A DNA stretch of 64,000 nucleotides from Lachnospiraceae bacterium (GTDB lineage: Bacteria; Bacillota; Clostridia; Lachnospirales; Lachnospiraceae). The position numbers and the translations under genes are program-made. Below the pieces are notes generated by a model. The model was not told where the DNA came from and searched no databases. It was given only the letters and a program-made list of their open reading frames with translations. The stretch covers positions 719 through 64,718 of the forward strand of contig JALEPU010000057.1 in assembly GCA_022766905.1 (NCBI GenBank). The letters are read 5' to 3'. Shown piece after piece: positions 8,126-37,405 of this stretch (position 1 is its first letter; every line of letters starts with the position of its first letter).

Positions 8126-9790
8126 TTATTTTTTCTGTACATATTTCAGACAGTCAAGAGTTACTGCAACAAGGATAATGATACCTTCAAATACGAACTG
8201 TAAGTTTGTATCAATACCAAGAATAGTAAGAGAGTATGTAAGTGCTGTAAAGATCAGAACACCAACTACAACACCGGAAATTTTACCGATACCACCGGTA
8301 AAGGATACACCACCTACTACGCAGGCTGCGATTGCGTCCATCTCCCATCCCTGTCCATATGCTGCAGATCCGGAACCTACCATTCTGGCACATTCCAGCC
8401 ATGCACCAAATCCATACAGGATACCTGCAAGAACGAATGCTCCGACTGTTACTGCAAATACGGAAATACCTGAAACAGCAGCTGCTTCCGGATTTCCACC
8501 AACTGCATACAGATTTTTACCAAATGTTGTCTTATTCCAGATGAACCATACAATTACAATGGCTGCTACTGCCCAGAGAATAATGGTTGGGAAACCATTG
8601 ATCTTAGGAATAATCATACCTGGGATTGCAGGGTCAATAGCACCGAAGGATACACCTTTTGTTGCATAGGTAACAAGACCGAAAATAATCAGCATGTTGG
8701 CCATGGTCGAAATAAATGGATGCATCTTAAATTTAGCGGTAAAGAAACCTGCAATTGTGGTAAAGAACGTACACATAACAACACAGACAACTAATGCAAG
8801 GATTACTCTTCCGCCCAGAGGCATATTGGAAAAGTCAAAAATATGTCCGAATACACCTCCGGTATTAGGACCCTGATGCATAATAATGGTTGCTGCTGTC
8901 ATGCCCATACCAATCATACGTCCAATGGAAAGGTCGGTACCTGTTAACAGGATCAGGCCGGCAACACCGAGTGCAAGATACATTCTAGGAGATGCTTGCT
9001 GAAGAATGTTCAGTACGTTGTTGTAAGTAAGCAACGGAGATCCTTTTACAATTGGAGTGATAATACACAGCATAATAAAAATTAATAAAATGGCGATATA
9101 CAAACCATTCTGTAAAAGGAAAGATCTTCTGTTAAATGTATATTTATAGTTTTCCCATTTCTGAGCCATGTTTTCTGCAAAAGTAAACCTGGACATACGA
9201 AGCATATCAATCAGATGGTATTCCCATGTGAAAGCATCGTGCTTTCTGTCTTTGATATCCTGATAGTCTTTTTCCAGCTCAATTTTTGCATCAAACAATC
9301 TGTTCTTATGAACATAGTTCTCATCTTTAATTTCCTGATGATCGGAAAGTTTTGCAACTGCTTCTTTATGCTGTTTTTCCAGCTCTGCAACTTTTTGATC
9401 ATATTTTTGTTTAGCAGCAATTTTCTGCTGTTCACAGCTAGCTTTGATTGGCTGATAATAATCTTTATCAAAATGCTCTTTCAGGTAAGCTTCCGCCTCT
9501 GAAATCAATTTTGAAATCTCATCTTTATTCTGGGCTTCTACAGCCTTTGCAGCTTCCAGTTCTTTTCCAAGCTGTGCAACTCTGTTGTCTTTTTCCTCTT
9601 TATTCAGAGTACGGTCTCTTTTAATATTATCAATTGTATTTTGAAGAGCAACAACTTTATCGGTACCATCTACTCGTAAGCTGTCAATCTTCTCCTGAAT
9701 TTTACCAACGTGATCCTTGATTGGCTTGCGAAGCTCAAGTTCCTGCTCAGCCGTAAGGATCTTACTATTTTCATTAGCCATATCCATCAA
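8126..9790 (-). CDS. Sugar ABC transporter permease (MglC/BPD_transp_2 family) with a roughly 220-aa N-terminal coiled-coil extension
   Basis: The C-terminal roughly 330 aa form a typical 10-TM MglC-like core (LTGTDLSIGR motif). Residues 1 to about 222 are charged and heptad-like (KELEAAKAVEAQNKDEISKLISEAE...). The true start could be one of the Met residues at positions 1-4. Confidence 0.85.
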   Translation of the reverse strand: MMDMANENSKILTAEQELELRKPIKDHVGKIQEKIDSLRVDGTDKVVALQNTIDNIKRDRTLNKEEKDNRVAQLGKELEAAKAVEAQNKDEISKLISEAEAYLKEHFDKDYYQPIKASCEQQKIAAKQKYDQKVAELEKQHKEAVAKLSDHQEIKDENYVHKNRLFDAKIELEKDYQDIKDRKHDAFTWEYHLIDMLRMSRFTFAENMAQKWENYKYTFNRRSFLLQNGLYIAILLIFIMLCIITPIVKGSPLLTYNNVLNILQQASPRMYLALGVAGLILLTGTDLSIGRMIGMGMTAATIIMHQGPNTGGVFGHIFDFSNMPLGGRVILALVVCVVMCTFFTTIAGFFTAKFKMHPFISTMANMLIIFGLVTYATKGVSFGAIDPAIPGMIIPKINGFPTIILWAVAAIVIVWFIWNKTTFGKNLYAVGGNPEAAAVSGISVFAVTVGAFVLAGILYGFGAWLECARMVGSGSAAYGQGWEMDAIAACVVGGVSFTGGIGKISGVVVGVLIFTALTYSLTILGIDTNLQFVFEGIIILVAVTLDCLKYVQKK

Positions 9791-28864: not shown

Positions 28865-30466
28865 TTATCCTCTCAGTATCTCTTCCAGCGCAAGATAAGC
28901 ATCTTCATCTTTCTTTTGTTCTTCCAACGGAAGTTCATCAAAAGGTACCAGCAGAGGATGCTTTCTTTTTTTCTTATCCCGAACCGGTGCATACTCCCAG
29001 TTGTTCATAAAATGATATCGATTCCACCTGATATGTTCAATCTGCCAAAGTTTTTTCTTTTCCTCTTCATTCAACTGATGATATGCCTTCACTGCCTCAT
29101 CTCCGATTCCCGGTTCATCCATCCTTCGATCTGCCCCCAGAAGCAACCTGATTTTTTCCGGAATATGATCTGCCTGAGCAACATTGGAATATCTTAAAAA
29201 GGTGGTCAGTTTACTCCAGTCTTCAAGGAGATTCGGACAGGAAACACATTGATTCAGAGAACACAAATTTCCATTTTGTTTATTTTGGCATGGTTTTCCA
29301 TCTACTGTACCGTCACAACAATATTGTGCAAAATATCTGCTGTGAATCAGTTTTGCATGGTAAAACAGCTTTTCTTTCAGAATTGTCTCAGGATCGTATA
29401 ATTCTTTATTTACGCCAAAAGGAACAATGTTTTCTTTTTCCAGATTCCATAATGCAGACAACATTTTCTCATCGGAAAATTTCATATAACAGGCAGTATC
29501 CGCATAATAGGTTTTTAATTCATTTAACAGTTCAATGTTTTTTGCATCCATATCTTCAATCAGAATAACCCGGTCAAAAAAGTGATTTCTTTCCAGAATT
29601 TCATACCACTCCATGTCATAAAAATACACCGTATCATGATTGTCACAAATAGAATCATAAGGTTTCGCATCCCGTTCTTCTCCTTTTTCATTGATAATCT
29701 TAACATGAACGGTTTTGCTCAAATGATAATGTTTGGACAAATAGGCATGATAATCGCCTGCGATATGATATTCGATCTGAGAATCCGTAGAAATCACATT
29801 TTTCAAAATAGCCTGAGTTAACAGTCTTTGTCCGTAATTGTCAAAACCCAGCAAAAGTATTTTTTCTTTTTTATTCGTAACAGGATATTTATTCCAATAA
29901 TCTCTGGCACAATTCTCAGCTATATTACAAACAACCAGCTGTCTGTTTTCATAACTTCCCCGCAGTATTTTTTCCGAACACAAAAATACTTCTTTTTCAC
30001 TGCCATAAAACATTTTTGTTCCATGTTCATCCATAAAATGATACATATCAAAATCGTCTTCAAACATAAGAATATGCCTTGGAGCCCGAAAAGCAATTGA
30101 TTTATCCGAACAGATTGCTTTATTTCCCAGACTCTCCATGACAAGATCCTTATTTGCACTATCTCCGTGAATGGCAATCACATTATTCGTCCTGATTTTC
30201 ACCCAGATTCTGATATAATCTACCATAGAATAAAGAGCAGCTGCAATTGCAGCTGCTGTAGCAACAGGAGCCATAAACCTTGCAAACTCCGTAGCCGGAT
30301 TTAATACTTTGGCTTCTACACTAAATTCCATCACATATAATTGTGCTGTCTTATAAATGCAGTCCCAAAAAGTTCCCTCGTTTAAATTTATGATTCCATA
30401 TAATCCTACAATTCCAGGGACAAAAAACAGAAGTTTCCAGATCCTTTCCCACTTCTTTTTTTTCAT
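28865..30466 (-). CDS. Membrane protein: N-terminal 2-TM channel-like segment, two Rossmann-like modules, Cys-rich insert and tandem C-terminal RyR domains
   Basis: Start set to the ATG at 30466 (GGAGAGGA RBS; 533 aa). The C-terminus HIRWNRYHFMNNWEYAPVRDKKKRKHPLLVPFDELPLEEQKKDED matches the RyR-domain signature. An earlier half-repeat reads LIHSRYFAQ...WSKL..FLRYSNVAQADHIPEKIRLLG. Confidence 0.7.
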   Translation of the reverse strand: MKKKKWERIWKLLFFVPGIVGLYGIINLNEGTFWDCIYKTAQLYVMEFSVEAKVLNPATEFARFMAPVATAAAIAAALYSMVDYIRIWVKIRTNNVIAIHGDSANKDLVMESLGNKAICSDKSIAFRAPRHILMFEDDFDMYHFMDEHGTKMFYGSEKEVFLCSEKILRGSYENRQLVVCNIAENCARDYWNKYPVTNKKEKILLLGFDNYGQRLLTQAILKNVISTDSQIEYHIAGDYHAYLSKHYHLSKTVHVKIINEKGEERDAKPYDSICDNHDTVYFYDMEWYEILERNHFFDRVILIEDMDAKNIELLNELKTYYADTACYMKFSDEKMLSALWNLEKENIVPFGVNKELYDPETILKEKLFYHAKLIHSRYFAQYCCDGTVDGKPCQNKQNGNLCSLNQCVSCPNLLEDWSKLTTFLRYSNVAQADHIPEKIRLLLGADRRMDEPGIGDEAVKAYHQLNEEEKKKLWQIEHIRWNRYHFMNNWEYAPVRDKKKRKHPLLVPFDELPLEEQKKDEDAYLALEEILRG

Positions 30467-30482: not shown

Positions 30483-31055
30483 TCAGAACGTGTCCAGATC
30501 ATCCTCATAATCATGGGTTGCAACATATTTGACATACTCAATTGCTTCCCTGACAGGCGGCAGACAAAGTACAACAAAAGAAATCAGCGCTTCTGCACCA
30601 ATATAACCGCCACAGTAAATCAAACCATATCTAATGTTTGCTGCCATAGTCTGATCAACCATGTAATAGAACCAGACACAGTTCCATACACTTTCTATGT
30701 ACCGGAAAAGAACAGCAAAGAGATAACCTTTCTGAAGGCCTTTTTTCTGATGAGAGAAAAATCCTCCCAGCCCAAGAACCCCGTATCCCAGAAGATAATC
30801 CCATACTTCCGGTACATTGATAATACCTGGATAATCCAGAACATATTTGATTGCTCCGAAACAAAAACAGGTAAACAACCCGGTTGGCCCGCCGTAAAAA
30901 TATCCTGCCAGGCAGAGAATCATCATGCTAAGACAGGTGACTTCTCCTCCTTCTTTCAACTGAAGAGGCTGCATATAAGAAAGCAGCAGGCTCAGTGCAA
31001 GAAGGGTGATAATCCAAAACCATTTTCGATTCCACAGATATCCTTCTTTTATCAT
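30483..31055 (-). CDS. ThiT/YuaJ-like polytopic membrane protein (ECF S-component-like)
   Basis: Start set to the ATG at 31055, which forms an ATGA overlap with the upstream stop. GGEVTCLSMMILCLAGYFYGGPTGLF...LDYPGI...LGYGVLGLGGFF follows the ThiT (Thia_YuaJ) pattern. About 190 aa with 6 predicted TM helices. Confidence 0.55.
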   Translation of the reverse strand: MIKEGYLWNRKWFWIITLLALSLLLSYMQPLQLKEGGEVTCLSMMILCLAGYFYGGPTGLFTCFCFGAIKYVLDYPGIINVPEVWDYLLGYGVLGLGGFFSHQKKGLQKGYLFAVLFRYIESVWNCVWFYYMVDQTMAANIRYGLIYCGGYIGAEALISFVVLCLPPVREAIEYVKYVATHDYEDDLDTF

Positions 31056-32947
31056 TTTTCCACCGATCCTTTTTCTCTTAATTTCTGTTTTCTTATATGG
31101 CGGTTTTTCTTGCTCAGAATGTACCACACGAGCAGAATCAATCCGCCTCCGCCCAGCACGACAACATCAAAGGTATTAGATGCCGATTCCACCGGAATTC
31201 CGCAGCTTTCATAAAACCTGCTTAAAAGACCTACCATATATTCCTGGACCTGCAAAATTGCCAGAATTGTTGCTGCTATATTAATAACCGCTCCGTTTCT
31301 ACGTTCATCTCTGGCATTTTTGATATCTACTATATGTTCCAGAAATTCCTGTTGCTCATAGTAATCCCGCCGCAATTCATCGTTTCCAAAGGCCTGTTTG
31401 ATCTGATCCGCTTCTCTTTGCGTTCCGTAATATTTAAAATTATTGCTTTGCCAGAACTTAATGGTTTTTGCATAATCTCTGTAAATCTGTCCGATATATT
31501 CATAGGAAACATCGCCTTCATGGGCAAGGGCATTGGATACTTTTATGGTCACTTTATTTAAAGCAGTATTTTGGAAAATCACCATTTCCACAATAAAAAT
31601 ATAGGTTGCGGTAAGTTCTATTCTCTCTTTTAATTCTTCCGGCTGAAACTCCTTCAAAATAAATGCAACCACCGCTTCCGTCATATAGACTTCATAATAG
31701 TCGTATACAGCCCGGTTTTTCTCCGCCTGCTCTTTCAATTCTTCATACTGAATATGAAAATCCTGATGCATACTGTTATAAGCTTCTGCCGTTAAAATAT
31801 TATAAAATTCCCGTTCTATTTCCGGTTTATTGGACATACAGATAATACTTTTTCCGGTTCCACAGGGAAGAAGACCAAACTCTTCTTTTAAGTACTGATT
31901 CAGTTCCTGATACTGATAAAAGCCCTTTTCATCCATGTCATTTTTATGACGGATTTTCAGGTAGCCATGACTTAACTGGTCCTCCACCTGAGAAGTGGAA
32001 TATCTGCAATCCGGAATAAAAAGCATAACTACATACATATGAGAAGAATGATGAGCAAGCAGGGAAAGGTACACCTTTTCTTCCCCCTGAATGTATGGTC
32101 TTGCGTTCTCATCTTCCTCGTCTTCATAGGTATCCAGGGTGTGAAGAAACATAAATTCTCCCAGATAAACTCTTTTTAATTCATTCACTACCGTATTCTG
32201 ACATTCATAATTCAGGCAGTCATCCAAAGCATTTAACAGGTAGCCTGCCACTTCCGGAGTTTTTGCATTTTTTATGCTGTATTCTTCTCCAAACAGTTTT
32301 TCTACTTTTGTATTTTTTTTATTGTCTGCATAGGGAAGAAAAAGATATACATCATCTTTGTAGGTCTTGAAATAAAGATCTTTCTTCAACAGCTTTTTCA
32401 GATAGATTCCGTCGCAAAGATAGACTTTATTTTCATCATGAATCTCCCGGTAAATGCGAAACATTCTGCTCCTCAAAAATTTCTGCCCATCTTCGGAAAC
32501 AGCAGTTGCAGAAATAGCATGAATCGGGTAACCTTCCTCTTCCAGCTCGTTGAGATAATCTACAAAACCGTCTGTTAATGTCATCACCACATTTTTATCA
32601 GACCGGTATTCTGGTGAAACGGCAATAGAAATAATAAACAAATTATTATCTTCCTCTTTGGAATAATCTGCCATTTCATCCGGTCTGATATCATCATCCC
32701 GTATTTCCATGCCCGTCTCTACAATTTCATCCCAAAGCTTTGGTTTTACCGGGAAAAAATTGATATAACCTGCAACTTTGTCTCCATCCATTACACAGAC
32801 AAAAGTTCTGGGATTTTCTTTGTATCTGTCTTCCATGTTCACCAGTTCTCCCACATACTGGTCCGGATAGCATTTTGCATCAATTTCCATAATTTTTGGC
32901 AAAAATGCAAGTCCCATCTCTTCGCCTTTTAAAATACTATACTTCAT
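31052..32947 (-). CDS. GNAT-family N-acetyltransferase fused to a large helical domain and a C-terminal 2-TM hairpin
   Basis: Start set to the ATG at 32947 (AGGAG RBS, 23 nt after the potD stop). The first roughly 190 aa look like a GNAT fold (VAGYINFFP..., FIISIAVSPEYR). The last 80 aa contain two TM helices (AVINIAATILAILQV / VVVLGGGGLILLVWYIL). Confidence 0.6.
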   Translation of the reverse strand: MKYSILKGEEMGLAFLPKIMEIDAKCYPDQYVGELVNMEDRYKENPRTFVCVMDGDKVAGYINFFPVKPKLWDEIVETGMEIRDDDIRPDEMADYSKEEDNNLFIISIAVSPEYRSDKNVVMTLTDGFVDYLNELEEEGYPIHAISATAVSEDGQKFLRSRMFRIYREIHDENKVYLCDGIYLKKLLKKDLYFKTYKDDVYLFLPYADNKKNTKVEKLFGEEYSIKNAKTPEVAGYLLNALDDCLNYECQNTVVNELKRVYLGEFMFLHTLDTYEDEEDENARPYIQGEEKVYLSLLAHHSSHMYVVMLFIPDCRYSTSQVEDQLSHGYLKIRHKNDMDEKGFYQYQELNQYLKEEFGLLPCGTGKSIICMSNKPEIEREFYNILTAEAYNSMHQDFHIQYEELKEQAEKNRAVYDYYEVYMTEAVVAFILKEFQPEELKERIELTATYIFIVEMVIFQNTALNKVTIKVSNALAHEGDVSYEYIGQIYRDYAKTIKFWQSNNFKYYGTQREADQIKQAFGNDELRRDYYEQQEFLEHIVDIKNARDERRNGAVINIAATILAILQVQEYMVGLLSRFYESCGIPVESASNTFDVVVLGGGGLILLVWYILSKKNRHIRKQKLREKGSVEK

Positions 32948-32970: not shown

Positions 32971-34032
32971 TTAGTCTGCTTTCAGCTCTTTCCACAATTC
33001 ATTCATAAAATCTGTCGTTTTTTCATCAGTCATGAGAGATACTTCGCAGTCCTTTGTGGCATCGTCAGATGGAACCAAAGCCTCATCTGCCCGATCTTCC
33101 TCTGACAGACTTTCAATCACTGCTTCATTTGGTGTAGAATAGTAAATATATTCAAAATTCTTCTGGGCAATATCTTCTCTGCACAGGAAATCTAAAAACT
33201 TCTGTGCAGCATCCATATTGTCACAGTATTTTGTAACACACCAGGAATCCAGCCATACATTGGAACCTTCCTTTGGAATCACATAAGCCAGATTTTCATT
33301 GTACTGATGTCCCAGATAAGCCTCTCCGGAATATACAACAGCCATAGTTGCATTCCCTGCAACAACTTCATCTCTGGCTTCGTCTACCAGATAAGCCTGT
33401 ACATCCGGTTTCTGTTTTAAAAGCAGTTCCTGAGCCTCTTTCAGTTCTTTTTCATCGCTGCTGTTCAAAGAATATCCAAGGGCTTTCAACGCCAGCATGA
33501 ACATATCACGCATACTGTTCTGCATGACGATTTCACCGGAATATTCTCCATTAAATAATACATTCCAGCTGTCTACCGGCTCTTTTACCTTGGTCGTATC
33601 ATAAAGGATACCTAAAGTTCCCCAAAAATACGGAACCGTATAGTTGTTATCCGGGTCAAATGCTTTTGAAAATTCCCAGTATTTATCTCCAATATTCTCT
33701 TTGTTTTCCAGGGCATCTATATCAATTTCCTGTAACTCTCCTTCACTAATCAGTTTTTGAAGCATATAATCCGTAGAGCAAAGCAAATCATATTCGATTG
33801 CACCGGATTTATATTTGGTATACATCTCTTCCGGAGTCAAAGCCTCTTCATATTTCACTTCAATTCCTGTCTCTTCCGTAAACTGATCCAAAACATCCGG
33901 ATCCATATATTCTCCGTAATTAAAAACTGTCAGAGTATCTGTCACTTCTGTCTTTTTGCTTCCGCATCCGGTCAGAACCCCGGAACATGCCATTACTGCA
34001 GCCATTACAAAACATACGATTCTTTTTTTCAT
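32971..34032 (-). CDS. potD: Spermidine/putrescine ABC transporter substrate-binding lipoprotein
   Basis: Lipobox LTGCGS, a PotD-like SBP_bac_8 sequence, and its position after potABC. Confidence 0.85.
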   Translation of the reverse strand: MKKRIVCFVMAAVMACSGVLTGCGSKKTEVTDTLTVFNYGEYMDPDVLDQFTEETGIEVKYEEALTPEEMYTKYKSGAIEYDLLCSTDYMLQKLISEGELQEIDIDALENKENIGDKYWEFSKAFDPDNNYTVPYFWGTLGILYDTTKVKEPVDSWNVLFNGEYSGEIVMQNSMRDMFMLALKALGYSLNSSDEKELKEAQELLLKQKPDVQAYLVDEARDEVVAGNATMAVVYSGEAYLGHQYNENLAYVIPKEGSNVWLDSWCVTKYCDNMDAAQKFLDFLCREDIAQKNFEYIYYSTPNEAVIESLSEEDRADEALVPSDDATKDCEVSLMTDEKTTDFMNELWKELKAD

Positions 34033-34076
34033 TTCTCGTCCTCTCTCTTTCTTTCTAACTAATATCCTGCATAATA

Positions 34077-34874
34077 TTATCCGATGTAGGATTTCTCTTC
34101 CTTTTTTCTGGATGGAAAATAATTTACCACCAGCAAAATCATAAATACAAATACAAAAATAATCGTAGACAGAGCATACATCTCCGGTTTGATTCCTTTT
34201 CGTATTTCTCCGTATATCATGGTGGAGAGAGTATTAACTCCTGCTCCTTTTGTAAAATAGGTTATTACAAAATCATCCATAGACATGGTAAATGCCATGA
34301 AAAAACCGGAAAGAATTCCACCTGTAAGCTGAGGCAGAATAATCTTAAAAAACGCATAGACTGCATTCGCCCCCAAGTCTCTTGCTGCTTCATAAATACT
34401 CAGGTTCATCTGCTTGATCTTTGGCATCACGCTTAGAATGACATAAGGAATATTAAATGTAATATGAGCAAGTAAGACACTTCCAAATCCCAGGGGAATA
34501 AAATGAACAAACCAGAGCATCAGAGCAATACCGGTTACAATGTCCGCATTTAACATCGGGATATTGGTAAGTATCATCATAATCTTATAATTTCTTTGTC
34601 GCATCGCATGGATACCTAATGCTCCAAGCACTCCTACCACAGTTGCAATCAGCGCTGACATAAGAGCCAGAATCAAAGTCGTTGCCAAAGCTTCCTTAAT
34701 CTGCCGGTTGGAAAACAGTCTCTGATACCAGTTTAAAGTAAATCCTCCCCAGGTTACCCGGGATCTGGAATCATTGAAAGAAAGTACAATCAGCACCAGA
34801 ATAGGAGCATACAAAAATATCATAATGATGCCGATATAAAACCGACTCACCCAGTCTTTTATCTTTTCTACCAT
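34077..34874 (-). CDS. potC: Spermidine/putrescine ABC transporter permease
   Basis: 265 aa, 6 TM helices, EAA loop (YEAARDLGA). Confidence 0.85.
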   Translation of the reverse strand: MVEKIKDWVSRFYIGIIMIFLYAPILVLIVLSFNDSRSRVTWGGFTLNWYQRLFSNRQIKEALATTLILALMSALIATVVGVLGALGIHAMRQRNYKIMMILTNIPMLNADIVTGIALMLWFVHFIPLGFGSVLLAHITFNIPYVILSVMPKIKQMNLSIYEAARDLGANAVYAFFKIILPQLTGGILSGFFMAFTMSMDDFVITYFTKGAGVNTLSTMIYGEIRKGIKPEMYALSTIIFVFVFMILLVVNYFPSRKKEEKSYIG

Positions 34875-35704
34875 ATTGCCGAGCCCTTTCCTTCTACTTC
34901 ATTTTTCGTGGTAAATGCCATACTGATTAATACAAAGATCATCAGGGAGACAGATAGTCCGGATCCCAGATTCCAGTTGACACTCTTGGTAAATTCCTGT
35001 TCGATAATATTTCCGATTAACTGAAGCTTGCCGCCTCCTAAAATATCTGATATTACAAATGACGTCATGGAAGGCACAAAAACCATCACAATTCCACTTA
35101 ACAACCCGGGAACGGATAAAGGAAAAATGATTTTCCGAAAAATCGTAAGACTTCCGGCGCCTAAATCTTTTGCAGCTTCAATGATATCTTCATCAATTTC
35201 CGATATGGCATTAAAAATCGGAAGTACCATAAAAGGAAGGTAGTCATAAACAACACCGATCATAATCGCCGTTCCCGTATTGGCAATGGCTAACGGCTCG
35301 ATTCCAACCTTCTGAAGGAGAAAATTCAAAATTCCATTAGAAGATAAAATCATCTGCCAGGCCAGAATCCTTAAAATAAAATTCATCCACATAGGAAGGA
35401 TCAGTACAAAAATCATAAAGCCCTGTTTTCCCATATTCAGCCTTCTCAGTGCCATCACGAGAGGATAGGACAAGAGAATACATACAAAAGTACATCCCAA
35501 CGCAATCTCCAGAGAAAAGATCATCGCTTTCATATGAATCGGGTCTGCAATAGCCAGAATATTATCCAGCGTAAATCCTCCGTCCCGCCCTGTTAATGCA
35601 TAGCGGAAAATCACGATCATCGGAATCAGGGTAAATCCAATGACCCAGAGCACATAGGGAGAAGACAGCCAGCTTCTCGGATTGACCGATTTTAATTTAT
35701 TCAT
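34868..35704 (-). CDS. potB: Spermidine/putrescine ABC transporter permease
   Basis: 278 aa, 6 TM helices, EAA loop (IEAAKDLGAG). Overlaps both potA and potC. Confidence 0.85.
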   Translation of the reverse strand: MNKLKSVNPRSWLSSPYVLWVIGFTLIPMIVIFRYALTGRDGGFTLDNILAIADPIHMKAMIFSLEIALGCTFVCILLSYPLVMALRRLNMGKQGFMIFVLILPMWMNFILRILAWQMILSSNGILNFLLQKVGIEPLAIANTGTAIMIGVVYDYLPFMVLPIFNAISEIDEDIIEAAKDLGAGSLTIFRKIIFPLSVPGLLSGIVMVFVPSMTSFVISDILGGGKLQLIGNIIEQEFTKSVNWNLGSGLSVSLMIFVLISMAFTTKNEVEGKGSAIW

Positions 35705-36770
35705 CTTCTTTTATAACCTCCGCATCCTTAGAATGAGGTTTATGCATAATCTGAATATTGTCAGGCAGAATCGTAAGTCCTACCATATCTCCGATTGGAG
35801 CCGGATTGACACTTTGAACGGACCAGTCATAATCCCCTACCTGAACTTTGATCTCATAGTATGCGCCTTTAAATATAATGGAAATAACCCTTCCCGAAAG
35901 GAATCCTTCGTTCTCTCCTACAATCACCAGATCCTCCGGCCGGATTACCACATCTACCGGTTCATCTTTTCCAAATCCGGTATCCACACATAAGATTGGT
36001 ACATTCTGAATCTCAACCAGACAATCTTCTCTCATAATTCCATCAATAATATTACTGTCTCCGATGAAATCGGCTACAAAAGCATTCTGTGGCTCATCAT
36101 AAATACTCTTTGATGTACCCATCTGCTGAATGATTCCTTTGTTCATGACAATAATCCGGTCCGACATGGTAAGGGCCTCTTCCTGATCATGGGTAACATA
36201 GACAAAGGTAATACCAACTTCTTTTTTTATCTTAATCAGCTCCCGCTGCATCCCATGACGAAGTTTTAAATCCAGCGCACCAAGAGGTTCATCCAAAAGA
36301 AGAATCTCCGGTTCATTTACAATGGCTCTTGCTATGGCAACCCTCTGCTGCTGACCACCGCTTAATGAAGTCGGTTTTCTCTTTCCATACCCATCCATAT
36401 TAACCAGTTTCAGTGCGTATGCTACTTTATCTTTGATGTATTGGGCACTTTTCTTTTTCAGTTTCAAACCAAACGCAATGTTTTCCTCCACATTCATGTG
36501 GGGGAATAAAGAATATTTCTGAAATACCGTGTTTACATTACGTTTGTCCGGAGATAATCCGGTAATATCCTTTCCTTCAAATAATACTCTTCCTTCGTCC
36601 GGCTTTTCAAATCCTCCGATAATCCGAAGAGTTGTTGACTTCCCACAGCCGGAAGGGCCTAAAAGGGTAATAAATTCATTCCTTTTAATCTCAAGATTCA
36701 TATTATTCAATATTTTCTTGCCATCAAAAGACTTACTTATAGAGTCTAATTCTAAAATAACGTCTTTCAT
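35697..36770 (-). CDS. potA: Spermidine/putrescine ABC transporter ATP-binding protein
   Basis: Start set to the ATG at 36770 (GGAGGA RBS). Walker A GPSGCGKST, signature LSGGQQQR, Walker B LLLDEPLGALD, plus a TOBE-like C-terminus. Confidence 0.9.
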   Translation of the reverse strand: MKDVILELDSISKSFDGKKILNNMNLEIKRNEFITLLGPSGCGKSTTLRIIGGFEKPDEGRVLFEGKDITGLSPDKRNVNTVFQKYSLFPHMNVEENIAFGLKLKKKSAQYIKDKVAYALKLVNMDGYGKRKPTSLSGGQQQRVAIARAIVNEPEILLLDEPLGALDLKLRHGMQRELIKIKKEVGITFVYVTHDQEEALTMSDRIIVMNKGIIQQMGTSKSIYDEPQNAFVADFIGDSNIIDGIMREDCLVEIQNVPILCVDTGFGKDEPVDVVIRPEDLVIVGENEGFLSGRVISIIFKGAYYEIKVQVGDYDWSVQSVNPAPIGDMVGLTILPDNIQIMHKPHSKDAEVIKEDE

Positions 36771-36781
36771 TCCTGTCCTCC

Positions 36782-37330
36782 TTAAAAGCTTGGCGGAGTG
36801 CTGATCCAAAGAATCGAAGCAACTTTTTTGCAAGCTGAAGTTATCCGATGTTTTTTATTTGCAGGGAAAATAAAAGAATCCCCTTTTTTCACTTTATAAA
36901 CAGATTCGCCATATTGAAGCATAATAGTTCCATCCAATACGTACCCAAACTCTTCCCCCTCATGGGGCTTATCAAAGGGCATGGTCTGTCCCGGCTGCAA
37001 TTTCACCAGAATCGGTTCTAAGCTTCTGCTCTGAGCAGAGGCAATCAGCCAGGTCGTGCTGTTTTGATTGTCGTCCGTCTTTTCAAAATAATCTTCTTTG
37101 TGATACACGATCTGCAAATCATTATCTTCATGAAAAAAGTCGGATAAATTTGTTCCGAGACACTCGACAATATCCGACAGCGTTGACACAGAAGGTGCCG
37201 TAAGTCCTCGTTCTAACTGGGAAATAAATCCCTTCGTAAGCTCGGTTCTGTCTGCAAGTTCTTCCTGTGTCAGTCCATTCTGGTTTCGCAGATTCCTGAT
37301 TTTTTCTCCTATCTGCTCCTCTATATTCAT
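36782..37330 (-). CDS. XRE-family HTH + cupin transcriptional regulator (PuuR-like) heading the pot operon
   Basis: N-terminal HTH_3 (IRNLRNQNGLTQEELADRTELTKGFISQLERG) and a C-terminal cupin_2 domain. 182 aa. Confidence 0.8.
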   Translation of the reverse strand: MNIEEQIGEKIRNLRNQNGLTQEELADRTELTKGFISQLERGLTAPSVSTLSDIVECLGTNLSDFFHEDNDLQIVYHKEDYFEKTDDNQNSTTWLIASAQSRSLEPILVKLQPGQTMPFDKPHEGEEFGYVLDGTIMLQYGESVYKVKKGDSFIFPANKKHRITSACKKVASILWISTPPSF

Positions 37331-37377: not shown

Positions 37378-37405
37378 ATTATACATATACTAAATCTAAA
37401 GTCAA
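37378..37405 (-). promoter_or_regulatory. Sigma-A promoter of the regulator/pot operon
   Basis: The minus strand reads TTGACT (37405-37400), a 16-nt spacer ending in TG, then TATAAT (37383-37378). This lies about 48 nt upstream of the ATG. Confidence 0.55.

Follow-up and report, generated by a model that had tools for sequence, protein, structure and literature searches.

A GNAT-fold protein with an undescribed domain and a membrane hairpin is paired with a ThiT-derived membrane protein beside polyamine-uptake genes in Lachnospiraceae

A stretch of 64,000 nucleotides from a Lachnospiraceae bacterium (assembly GCA_022766905.1, contig JALEPU010000057.1, positions 719 to 64,718, forward strand; hereafter the window, in whose coordinates positions are given) encodes a 631-residue protein, P0001, in which a GNAT-fold head, a large undescribed domain that we call X and a C-terminal hairpin of two transmembrane (TM) helices (together with X, the X-2TM region) follow one another in a single reading frame. 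Its gene is followed directly by one for a small membrane protein of S-component fold that derives from the ThiT lineage. The reading that we prefer, to which we assign a probability of roughly 0.4, is that the two products form a membrane complex in which capture of a cationic amine (probably a polyamine) by an S-component-like protein would be coupled to N-acylation of that amine. An arrangement of this kind was not found in the literature, including a survey of the S-component fold and its supplements (PMC11109136).

The architecture of P0001 was first proposed from the nucleotide sequence and its translations (the original prediction), together with the caution that the two halves might normally be separate genes, fused here by a sequencing or assembly artefact. 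The reading frame (31052..32947, minus strand) is open throughout its 631 codons, AGGAG lies 7 nt ahead of the ATG at 32947, and the stop codon of the preceding gene, potD, is 23 nt upstream; an alternative, longer GTG start at 32995 would run into potD and is not needed. Among 5.8 billion proteins searched, 142 full-length relatives were found, with 35-98% identity, all of them unnamed or 'hypothetical'. Because the architecture is kept end to end in these 142 homologues, it reflects neither chance nor an assembly artefact, and the joining of GNAT fold, large helical region and C-terminal hairpin in one chain is confirmed as a genuine, conserved fusion. The survey of its distribution that had been advised also points to a real fusion, since a P0001-type gene is present in 53 of 185,579 GTDB species (one genome per species); the parts are separate genes only in one minor clade of 6 species, where the split is natural.

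The partnership with the ThiT-like gene is almost as constant as the architecture itself. In the source genome the ATG of the partner overlaps the TGA of P0001 (ATGA at 31052-31055) and the two genes are translationally coupled, and tblastn places a ThiT-like gene directly downstream of the module in 51 of the 53 species loci. One of the two exceptions lies on a contig that ends early, and the other, in a metagenome-assembled genome (MAG) of the Bacilli, is truly without the partner. About a dozen of the 142 homologues are fused proteins of ~880-908 residues that carry the ThiT domain PF09515 in the same chain; loci L001/L002, L018, L024 and L025 have a single gene of this kind (~880-900 residues). 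In the fused proteins the segment that corresponds to the basic tail of P0001 forms the linker to the S-component domain. The opposite arrangement occurs in Roseburia lenta NSJ-9, where three overlapping genes (L052:7001-9588) encode a 201-residue GNAT, a 455-residue X-2TM protein and a 214-residue ThiT-like protein, and in five related species (L029, L046, L049-L051). A maximum-likelihood tree of the X-2TM region groups the fused forms in one clade and the split forms in one clade, with Treponema in two places. Because fusion, fission and strict adjacency occur together, there is strong evidence, from gene arrangement, for the proposal that the three modules act as one complex. In addition, a conserved acidic tail, A-T-H-x-x-E-D-D-x-x-x-F (A-T-H-D-Y-E-D-D-L-D-T-F in the source copy), closes the unfused partners and is missing from the fused forms; its probable docking site is the basic tail or linker of GNAT-X. 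In one MAG (L022:7001-9595) the GNAT-X frame stops at 8392, with ~600 nt before the partner, an arrangement that a frameshift, pseudogene formation or faulty assembly could explain.

Assignment of the first ~190 residues of P0001 to the GNAT fold, as originally proposed, is borne out by profile and structural comparisons. Residues 18-115 match Pfam Acetyltransf_1 (E = 3e-4, profile positions 3-72 only) at 21.3 bits against a gathering cut-off of 20.7, so that the match is marginal. AlphaFold2, given 44 homologues as input, models the whole protein with a mean predicted local distance difference test (pLDDT) score of 86.2 and a predicted template modelling (pTM) score of 0.79, and the head (residues 1-190) at pLDDT >90. 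When this model was compared with the Protein Data Bank (PDB) by Foldseek, ~84 matches were obtained at E<=1e-3, reaching E = 1e-5 with a TM-score of ~0.7 normalised on the target; the best 50 of these 84 are all GNAT-fold proteins (Ard1/Naa enzymes, CurA GNATL, SxtA) and cover approximately the first 190 residues. Among solved structures the best, weak sequence-profile match of the head is the eukaryotic acetyltransferase Naa60 (E = 0.4). The fold of the head is thus intact. Several of its residues are invariant, among them D23, Y27, G33, R41, G60, Y61, F64, P66, D84, D85, S107 and G154, and residues 82-91 form an invariant acidic loop, I-R-D-D-D-I-x-P-x-E.

The C-terminal end of P0001 was also read correctly at the outset. 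Two TM helices had been placed at nt 31115-31294, and Kyte-Doolittle hydropathy in 19-residue windows peaks at residues 557-575 (1.66) and 593-611 (2.12), which together with the modelled helices map the hairpin to nt ~31109-31291; the Lys/Arg-rich tail noted behind them (residues 613-631) has a net charge of +7. The predicted topology is in-out-in with both ends cytoplasmic, as fixed by the basic flanks and by the fused relatives, because the latter continue the hairpin into a ThiT-like domain whose N-terminus is assumed to be cytoplasmic, as in known ThiT. A topology with the hydrophobic helix 445-463 as a third TM segment was rejected, because the +7 tail, and in fused relatives the N-in ThiT domain as well, would then no longer lie in the cytoplasm. 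Structure prediction had been named as a step that might reveal no GNAT fold or no membrane hairpin; the model shows the GNAT fold, and hydropathy and model both show the hairpin.

Between head and hairpin lies the X domain, of ~360 residues. The ~440 residues behind the head were originally described as mixed alpha/beta and long-helical with acidic stretches, a description upheld by the models and by the sequence, which contains the acidic run TYEDEEDENA. Modelled alone, residues 190-631 reach a pLDDT of 86.7 and a pTM of 0.78; eight long strands with packing helices are followed by a helical bundle, and the last helix runs on into TM1. The alpha/beta part carries the motif S-T-S-Q-x-E-D-Q-L-S, helix 445-463 carries the conserved E454, Q459 and N460, and the invariant residues of X are acidic (D323, E388, E454) or aromatic (Tyr, Trp). 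The remark that this is not a characterised family holds as well. The 440 residues outside the head have no Pfam or NCBIfam match, a full-length family profile found no match among PDB sequences, and the advised Foldseek search with residues 190-631 gave no significant neighbour in the PDB (best E = 0.1) or in BFVD. A TTM/CYTH fold for the strand-rich part was considered on account of scattered weak Foldseek rows (Pct1, Cet1, LEF-4 and a CYTH protein; E 0.4-2.5, probability <0.1) and rejected for lack of support; an ExExK motif is absent, and the conserved residues are acidic, not basic.

The layout of a soluble domain, long helices and a C-terminal hairpin had led to a comparison with CorA/ZntB-type channels, and an oligomeric cation channel of this type, without the GMN motif and with the GNAT domain as a regulatory head, is very improbable. 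The gross topology is indeed the same, and a narrow, clade-level profile aligned to CorA by hhalign gave a probability of 26% over the last 110 residues, covering the CorA stalk, TM1 and TM2, in a suggestive register that sets F-Y...G-I-P opposite F-Y-G-M-N...G-I-P-F; one distant relative also has a sub-threshold match to PF01544 (E = 0.024). However, the signal vanishes with a broader X-2TM profile (6%, in a different region), and the wider X-2TM family shows no conserved hairpin sequence. The GMN motif is absent, as had been stated: TM1 is followed by L-L-S-R-F-Y-E-S-C-G-I-P, and the loop between the TM helices conserves F-Y-x-x-x-G-I in the family. PF01544 does not match P0001 at E<=1, a search of the source genome with this profile recovered two true CorA genes elsewhere and not P0001, and no CorA is among the best 50 Foldseek rows for residues 190-631. 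Homology to CorA was tested by Pfam, by the whole-genome profile search, by Foldseek and, with differing outcomes, by hhalign at two profile depths, and was rejected. The resemblance is taken to be topological only, and P0001 is most probably not a CorA-type ion channel; that part of the original prediction is unsupported, and it had overlooked both the ThiT-like partner and the polyamine-gene setting described below.

The X-2TM region belongs to a wider family. A profile search of 1.84 billion representative proteins collected 402 representatives, many of them stand-alone proteins of ~400 residues, and those examined have a separate GNAT-like gene immediately upstream. X-2TM is nearly always headed either by a GNAT, fused or encoded by a separate upstream gene, or by a gamma-glutamylamine cyclotransferase of the GGACT/AIG2 type; the latter form a sub-branch with PF06094 in place of the GNAT domain (E down to 6e-15; P0207, P0231, P0233, P0270, P0271, P0274, P0276, P0283 and P0289). 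Therefore, X-2TM, which is unclassified, appears to be a membrane platform for enzymes of amine and amide chemistry that has been reused with a second type of enzyme. The ThiT-like partner is specific to the clade of P0001 within this family. A Pfam scan of 79 X-2TM members found no recurring family, and a reading of X-2TM as a two-TM effector of anti-phage defence was rejected in the absence of any PADLOC match for the family. In Mycoplasma crocodyli, which has a minimal genome and reads TGA as Trp, a 581-residue relative (WP_013054629.1; L066:5001-6746) has a weak N-terminal GNAT signal. At two distant loci (L063:4376-6716 and L064:570-6209) a stand-alone X-2TM gene follows a separate small GNAT-like gene and lies beside genes for VanZ, a polysaccharide deacetylase, a PMT-type protein and glycosyltransferases of families GT2 and GT4.

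It has to be asked, then, whether the anchored GNAT modifies the cell envelope, by acylating an amine on a lipid-linked or otherwise membrane-proximal precursor while the partner handles the lipid or precursor. Membrane tethering fits a membrane-bound substrate, and the two loci just described have the neighbours that such a role would predict. But these are the only glycan contexts and both are distant from P0001, whose own clade is never found near envelope genes and is instead associated with pot and PuuR genes and with a small-molecule binder of the ThiT lineage, so that a role in envelope modification is unlikely.

The partner is related to ThiT at several levels of comparison. It matches PF09515 (Thia_YuaJ/ThiT) at 49.4 bits against a gathering score of 25.8 (E = 7e-13), a profile of 25 partners matches the solved Lactococcus lactis ThiT (4MES and 3RLB, E = 5e-6), and the closest named relative, with 37% identity, is an Anaerofustis ThiT encoded behind a thiamine pyrophosphate (TPP) riboswitch. 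Against the NCBIfam ThiT equivalog TIGR02357, however, it scores 45.3 bits, far under the cut-off of 108.45. No Rfam family was matched anywhere in the 64-kb window, so the partner has no TPP riboswitch; the only one detected in the source genome lies on another contig (C42:58447-58548; L082:1501-1602), ahead of tenA (thiaminase II) and a gene for an ATP-binding cassette (ABC) ATPase. What we take to be a thiamine contact of L. lactis ThiT, Asn151, is replaced by Cys, Asp or Ser in all 25 partners, whereas the true ThiT of Anaerofustis has Asn in this column, and the Trp-rich loop of ThiT is lost. The partners have an N-terminal motif of their own, W-N-x-K-x-x-W, and they keep Asp/Glu86-Tyr87, several Tyr residues and an invariant Glu155, which together predict an acidic, aromatic pocket suited to a cation. 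The helix-1 motif AxxxA, which mediates docking of S-components on EcfT (PMC11109136), is absent from the source copy and from 21 of the 25 partners but present at the aligned site in the Anaerofustis ThiT; EcfT genes are present in the source genome. From these comparisons, the partner appears to be ThiT-derived but no longer an ordinary ThiT.

The lineage of the partner nevertheless raises the possibility that it binds thiamine, its pyrimidine precursor or an antivitamin, whose amino group the GNAT domain would modify for salvage or detoxification. The profile matches and the identity to a riboswitch-controlled ThiT speak for this, as does the fact that the partner is the only PF09515 protein of the source genome. 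The missing riboswitch, the score far below the ThiT equivalog cut-off, the Asn position that is never kept and the lost Trp-rich loop all speak against it, and the operon neighbours are polyamine genes; a thiamine-related function is accordingly improbable.

The setting of the pair points to polyamines. Directly upstream of P0001, and on the same strand, lies potABCD (32971..36770), annotated as a spermidine/putrescine ABC importer, of which potA alone passes a curated NCBIfam cut-off (TIGR01187). Upstream of these genes a regulator with HTH_3 and cupin domains matches PuuR over its full length (E = 3e-27), under the equivalog cut-off. No convincing terminator was found between potD, the GNAT-X gene and the partner. 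Of the 53 species, 30 have potD immediately ahead of the module and 1 more has it within 3 kb; both deep clades of the tree contain such loci, and at least five changes of state are needed to account for them. Thus, in most of the carriers among Lachnospiraceae and Oscillospiraceae, the source genome included, gene order places the pair at what appears to be the distal end of a PuuR-like/potABCD operon. Directly downstream of the partner, a gene for a membrane protein with an RyR domain (28865-30466, minus strand) was also considered; a functional link was rejected, as this gene never adjoins the module in the 53 related loci, and it is probably functionally independent.

The distribution of the module is that of a gene that moves. 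Most carriers are gut or rumen Lachnospiraceae, and the others belong to Oscillospiraceae/Acutalibacteraceae, Ruminococcus, Coriobacteriia and Treponema, apart from one Bacilli MAG. A P0001 homologue is absent from each of 60 close relatives of the source genome, and the gene is therefore a patchy, horizontally mobile accessory gene. Among Treponema MAGs, some have the fused form (L024, L025) and others the two-gene form (L040-L042), in different clades, which implies at least two transfers across phyla.

The preferred reading draws these observations together as follows. P0001 would be the large subunit of a self-contained membrane module completed by the product of the next gene. The S-component-like partner would bind a cationic amine at the outer face of the membrane and move it inward, working without an energy-coupling factor (ECF) ATPase module. 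A cationic ligand is expected because the residues that do not vary, both in the GNAT loop (D84, D85, D86) and in X, are acidic or aromatic, and the ligand would most likely be of the polyamine class rather than thiamine. The hairpin and the X domain would position the GNAT head where the amine emerges into the cytoplasm and would be N-acylated, and the acidic tail of the partner would be docked on the basic tail or linker. The amine could in this way be taken up by chemical trapping; put differently, imported polyamine could be buffered or detoxified.

Several observations weigh against this proposal. The usual motif A of GNAT enzymes, which binds the pyrophosphate of acetyl-CoA, is R/Q-x-x-G-x-G/A. 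In P0001 it is degenerate, R-S-D-K-N-V, with both glycines gone; the family consensus is Y-R-[GDS]-x-[ED]-[AV], and the Naa60 alignment sets F-R-K-H-G-I-G opposite the Y-R-D-K-E-A-I of the family. Leu also stands at the usual Tyr position of alpha4. The head could thus use another acyl donor or be non-catalytic; catalysis is nonetheless plausible, and canonical GNATs occur in other branches of the X-2TM family. P0001 matches no NCBIfam family at E<=1, including the SpeG-type polyamine acetyltransferases. With regard to the partner, the source genome has no canonical ThiT, and much of the ThiT pocket appears to be retained, which leaves room for a thiamine-like ligand. At least 20 of the 53 carriers lack pot genes nearby, and their loci have no other recurring neighbour, so that the tie to polyamines is one of genomic context. 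The glycan settings of the distant stand-alone relatives belong on the same side of the balance.

Some of these points would also suit a signalling role, in which the partner serves as a ligand sensor like the one in 5TMR sensor kinases, the hairpin and X act as a relay, and the GNAT domain either binds a ligand as a pseudoenzyme or acetylates proteins so as to tune PotABCD or some other target. Such a transceptor is possible but doubtful. The degenerate motif A, the long helices that join the hairpin to the cytoplasmic domains and the protein N-terminal acetyltransferases among the best structural neighbours are consistent with it; moreover, the S-component fold is known to have been taken over for receptors, a use that is accompanied by loss of AxxxA (PMC11109136). 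However, the likeness to Naa enzymes in Foldseek is of a kind shared by GNAT folds in general, the module has no consistently associated output domain or regulator, many genomes carry the module without pot genes, and the relatives headed by GGACT instead suggest amide chemistry on small molecules rather than signalling. The rival explanations thus rank, by falling likelihood, as sensory or regulatory, envelope-precursor, thiamine-related and CorA-like channel.

If acylation of an imported amine is accepted as the working reading, it can be extended in three ways which, taken jointly, are tentative and rather doubtful. First, uptake may be independent of ECF modules, with the ThiT-derived S-component toppling against the two-TM scaffold instead of EcfT. 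Second, transport may be driven not by ATP but by N-acylation of the cargo, carried out at once by the tethered GNAT head, in a manner resembling group translocation for cationic amines. Third, X-2TM may be a general platform that brings amine-modifying enzymes, whether GNAT or gamma-glutamylamine cyclotransferase, together with various membrane partners. The positions of all features are collected in Table 1.

Table 1. Positions, within the 64,000-nt window, of the GNAT-X-2TM gene, its partner and the genes and signals upstream.
Feature	Position (nt)	Strand	Basis or remark
GNAT / X-domain / 2-TM protein, coding sequence (P0001, 631 residues)	31052..32947	-	stop TGA 31052-31054; 142 full-length homologues
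GNAT-fold domain, residues 1-190	32378..32947	-	Pfam, model, Foldseek, alignments including Naa60
Alpha/beta part of undescribed X domain, residues ~191-435	31643..32377	-	models, pLDDT mostly >90
Helical bundle or stalk of X domain, residues ~436-552	31292..31642	-	models, hydropathy, alignment
Predicted in-out-in TM hairpin (TM1 ~residues 553-575, TM2 ~residues 593-613)	31109..31291	-	hydropathy, model helices
Lys/Arg-rich cytoplasmic tail, net charge +7	31055..31108	-	hydropathy and charge; fused relatives
Partner, 190-residue ThiT-derived membrane protein of S-component fold	30483..31055	-	ATG overlaps P0001 stop
potD	32971-34032	-	best NCBIfam match PotD
potC	34077-34874	-	best NCBIfam match PotC
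potB	34868-35704	-	best NCBIfam match PotB
potA	35697-36770	-	best NCBIfam match PotA; passes TIGR01187 cut-off
PuuR-like HTH_3 and cupin regulator, first operon gene	36782..37330	-	PuuR best NCBIfam match
Best sigma-70-like promoter match, TTGACT-16-TATAAT (11/12)	37378..37405	-	ahead of regulator; consensus match only

The module is of interest for several reasons. How S-components transport without an ECF ATPase is an open question, and a natural fusion of one to a putative modifying enzyme, conserved in repeated instances, offers a compact system in which metabolic trapping can be tested. In many Lachnospiraceae of gut and rumen the pair also adds an unrecognised accessory to the operon for polyamine uptake, and it may be relevant to the microbial making or consuming of polyamines or acetylpolyamines in the gut. 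In addition, X-2TM is a family of ~400 members whose fold is predicted with confidence and is matched by no solved structure. Carriers in culture include Roseburia lenta NSJ-9, Lachnospiraceae bacterium XBB2008 and Ruminococcaceae bacterium YRB3002, and the three-gene form of the first of these is a convenient experimental system.

The system can be compared with several that are already known. CorA/ZntB channels of the MIT superfamily have a similar plan of cytoplasmic domain, long helices, C-terminal two-TM hairpin and basic tail, but P0001 differs from them in having no GMN motif, Pfam match, or structural or robust profile similarity. The eukaryotic Naa60 and NAT8/NAT8L are likewise GNATs that hydrophobic helices, C-terminal or internal, attach to a membrane; their anchor is unrelated, they have neither an X domain nor a transporter-like partner, and they belong to eukaryotic organelles.

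The partner shares with ThiT-family S-components (L. lactis ThiT, 3RLB and 4MES) the PF09515 domain, the match of its family profile to solved ThiT, the small multi-helix form and an acidic, aromatic pocket, and it differs from them in the absence of a TPP riboswitch and of a conserved AxxxA, the replaced thiamine-contact Asn, the W-N-x-K-x-x-W motif, the acidic tail and the constant pairing or fusion with a GNAT-X-2TM protein. BioY and BtuM are solitary S-components, and the partner resembles them in apparently working with no ECF module of its own.

Pairs of a transporter and an acetyltransferase for polyamines include blt-bltD of Bacillus subtilis and, in E. coli, SpeG with PotABCD. As in these pairs, a GNAT is genetically coupled to a polyamine transporter here, presumably in the service of polyamine homeostasis. 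However, their GNATs are small, soluble and equipped with canonical acetyl-CoA motifs, whereas that of P0001 is tethered to the membrane through a novel 440-residue module, coupled to a protein of S-component fold, degenerate in motif A and without likeness to the SpeG family of NCBIfam. An analogy to the proposed mechanism is offered by the Pnu family, in which facilitated uptake is combined with metabolic trapping, as for PnuT with thiamine kinase (PMC5749112). The proposed likeness is that of a carrier not driven by ATP that would be made directional by an enzyme modifying the substrate inside the cell; in Pnu systems trapping falls to a separate, soluble kinase, whereas the putative enzyme described here is tethered or fused to the module and would acylate its substrate.

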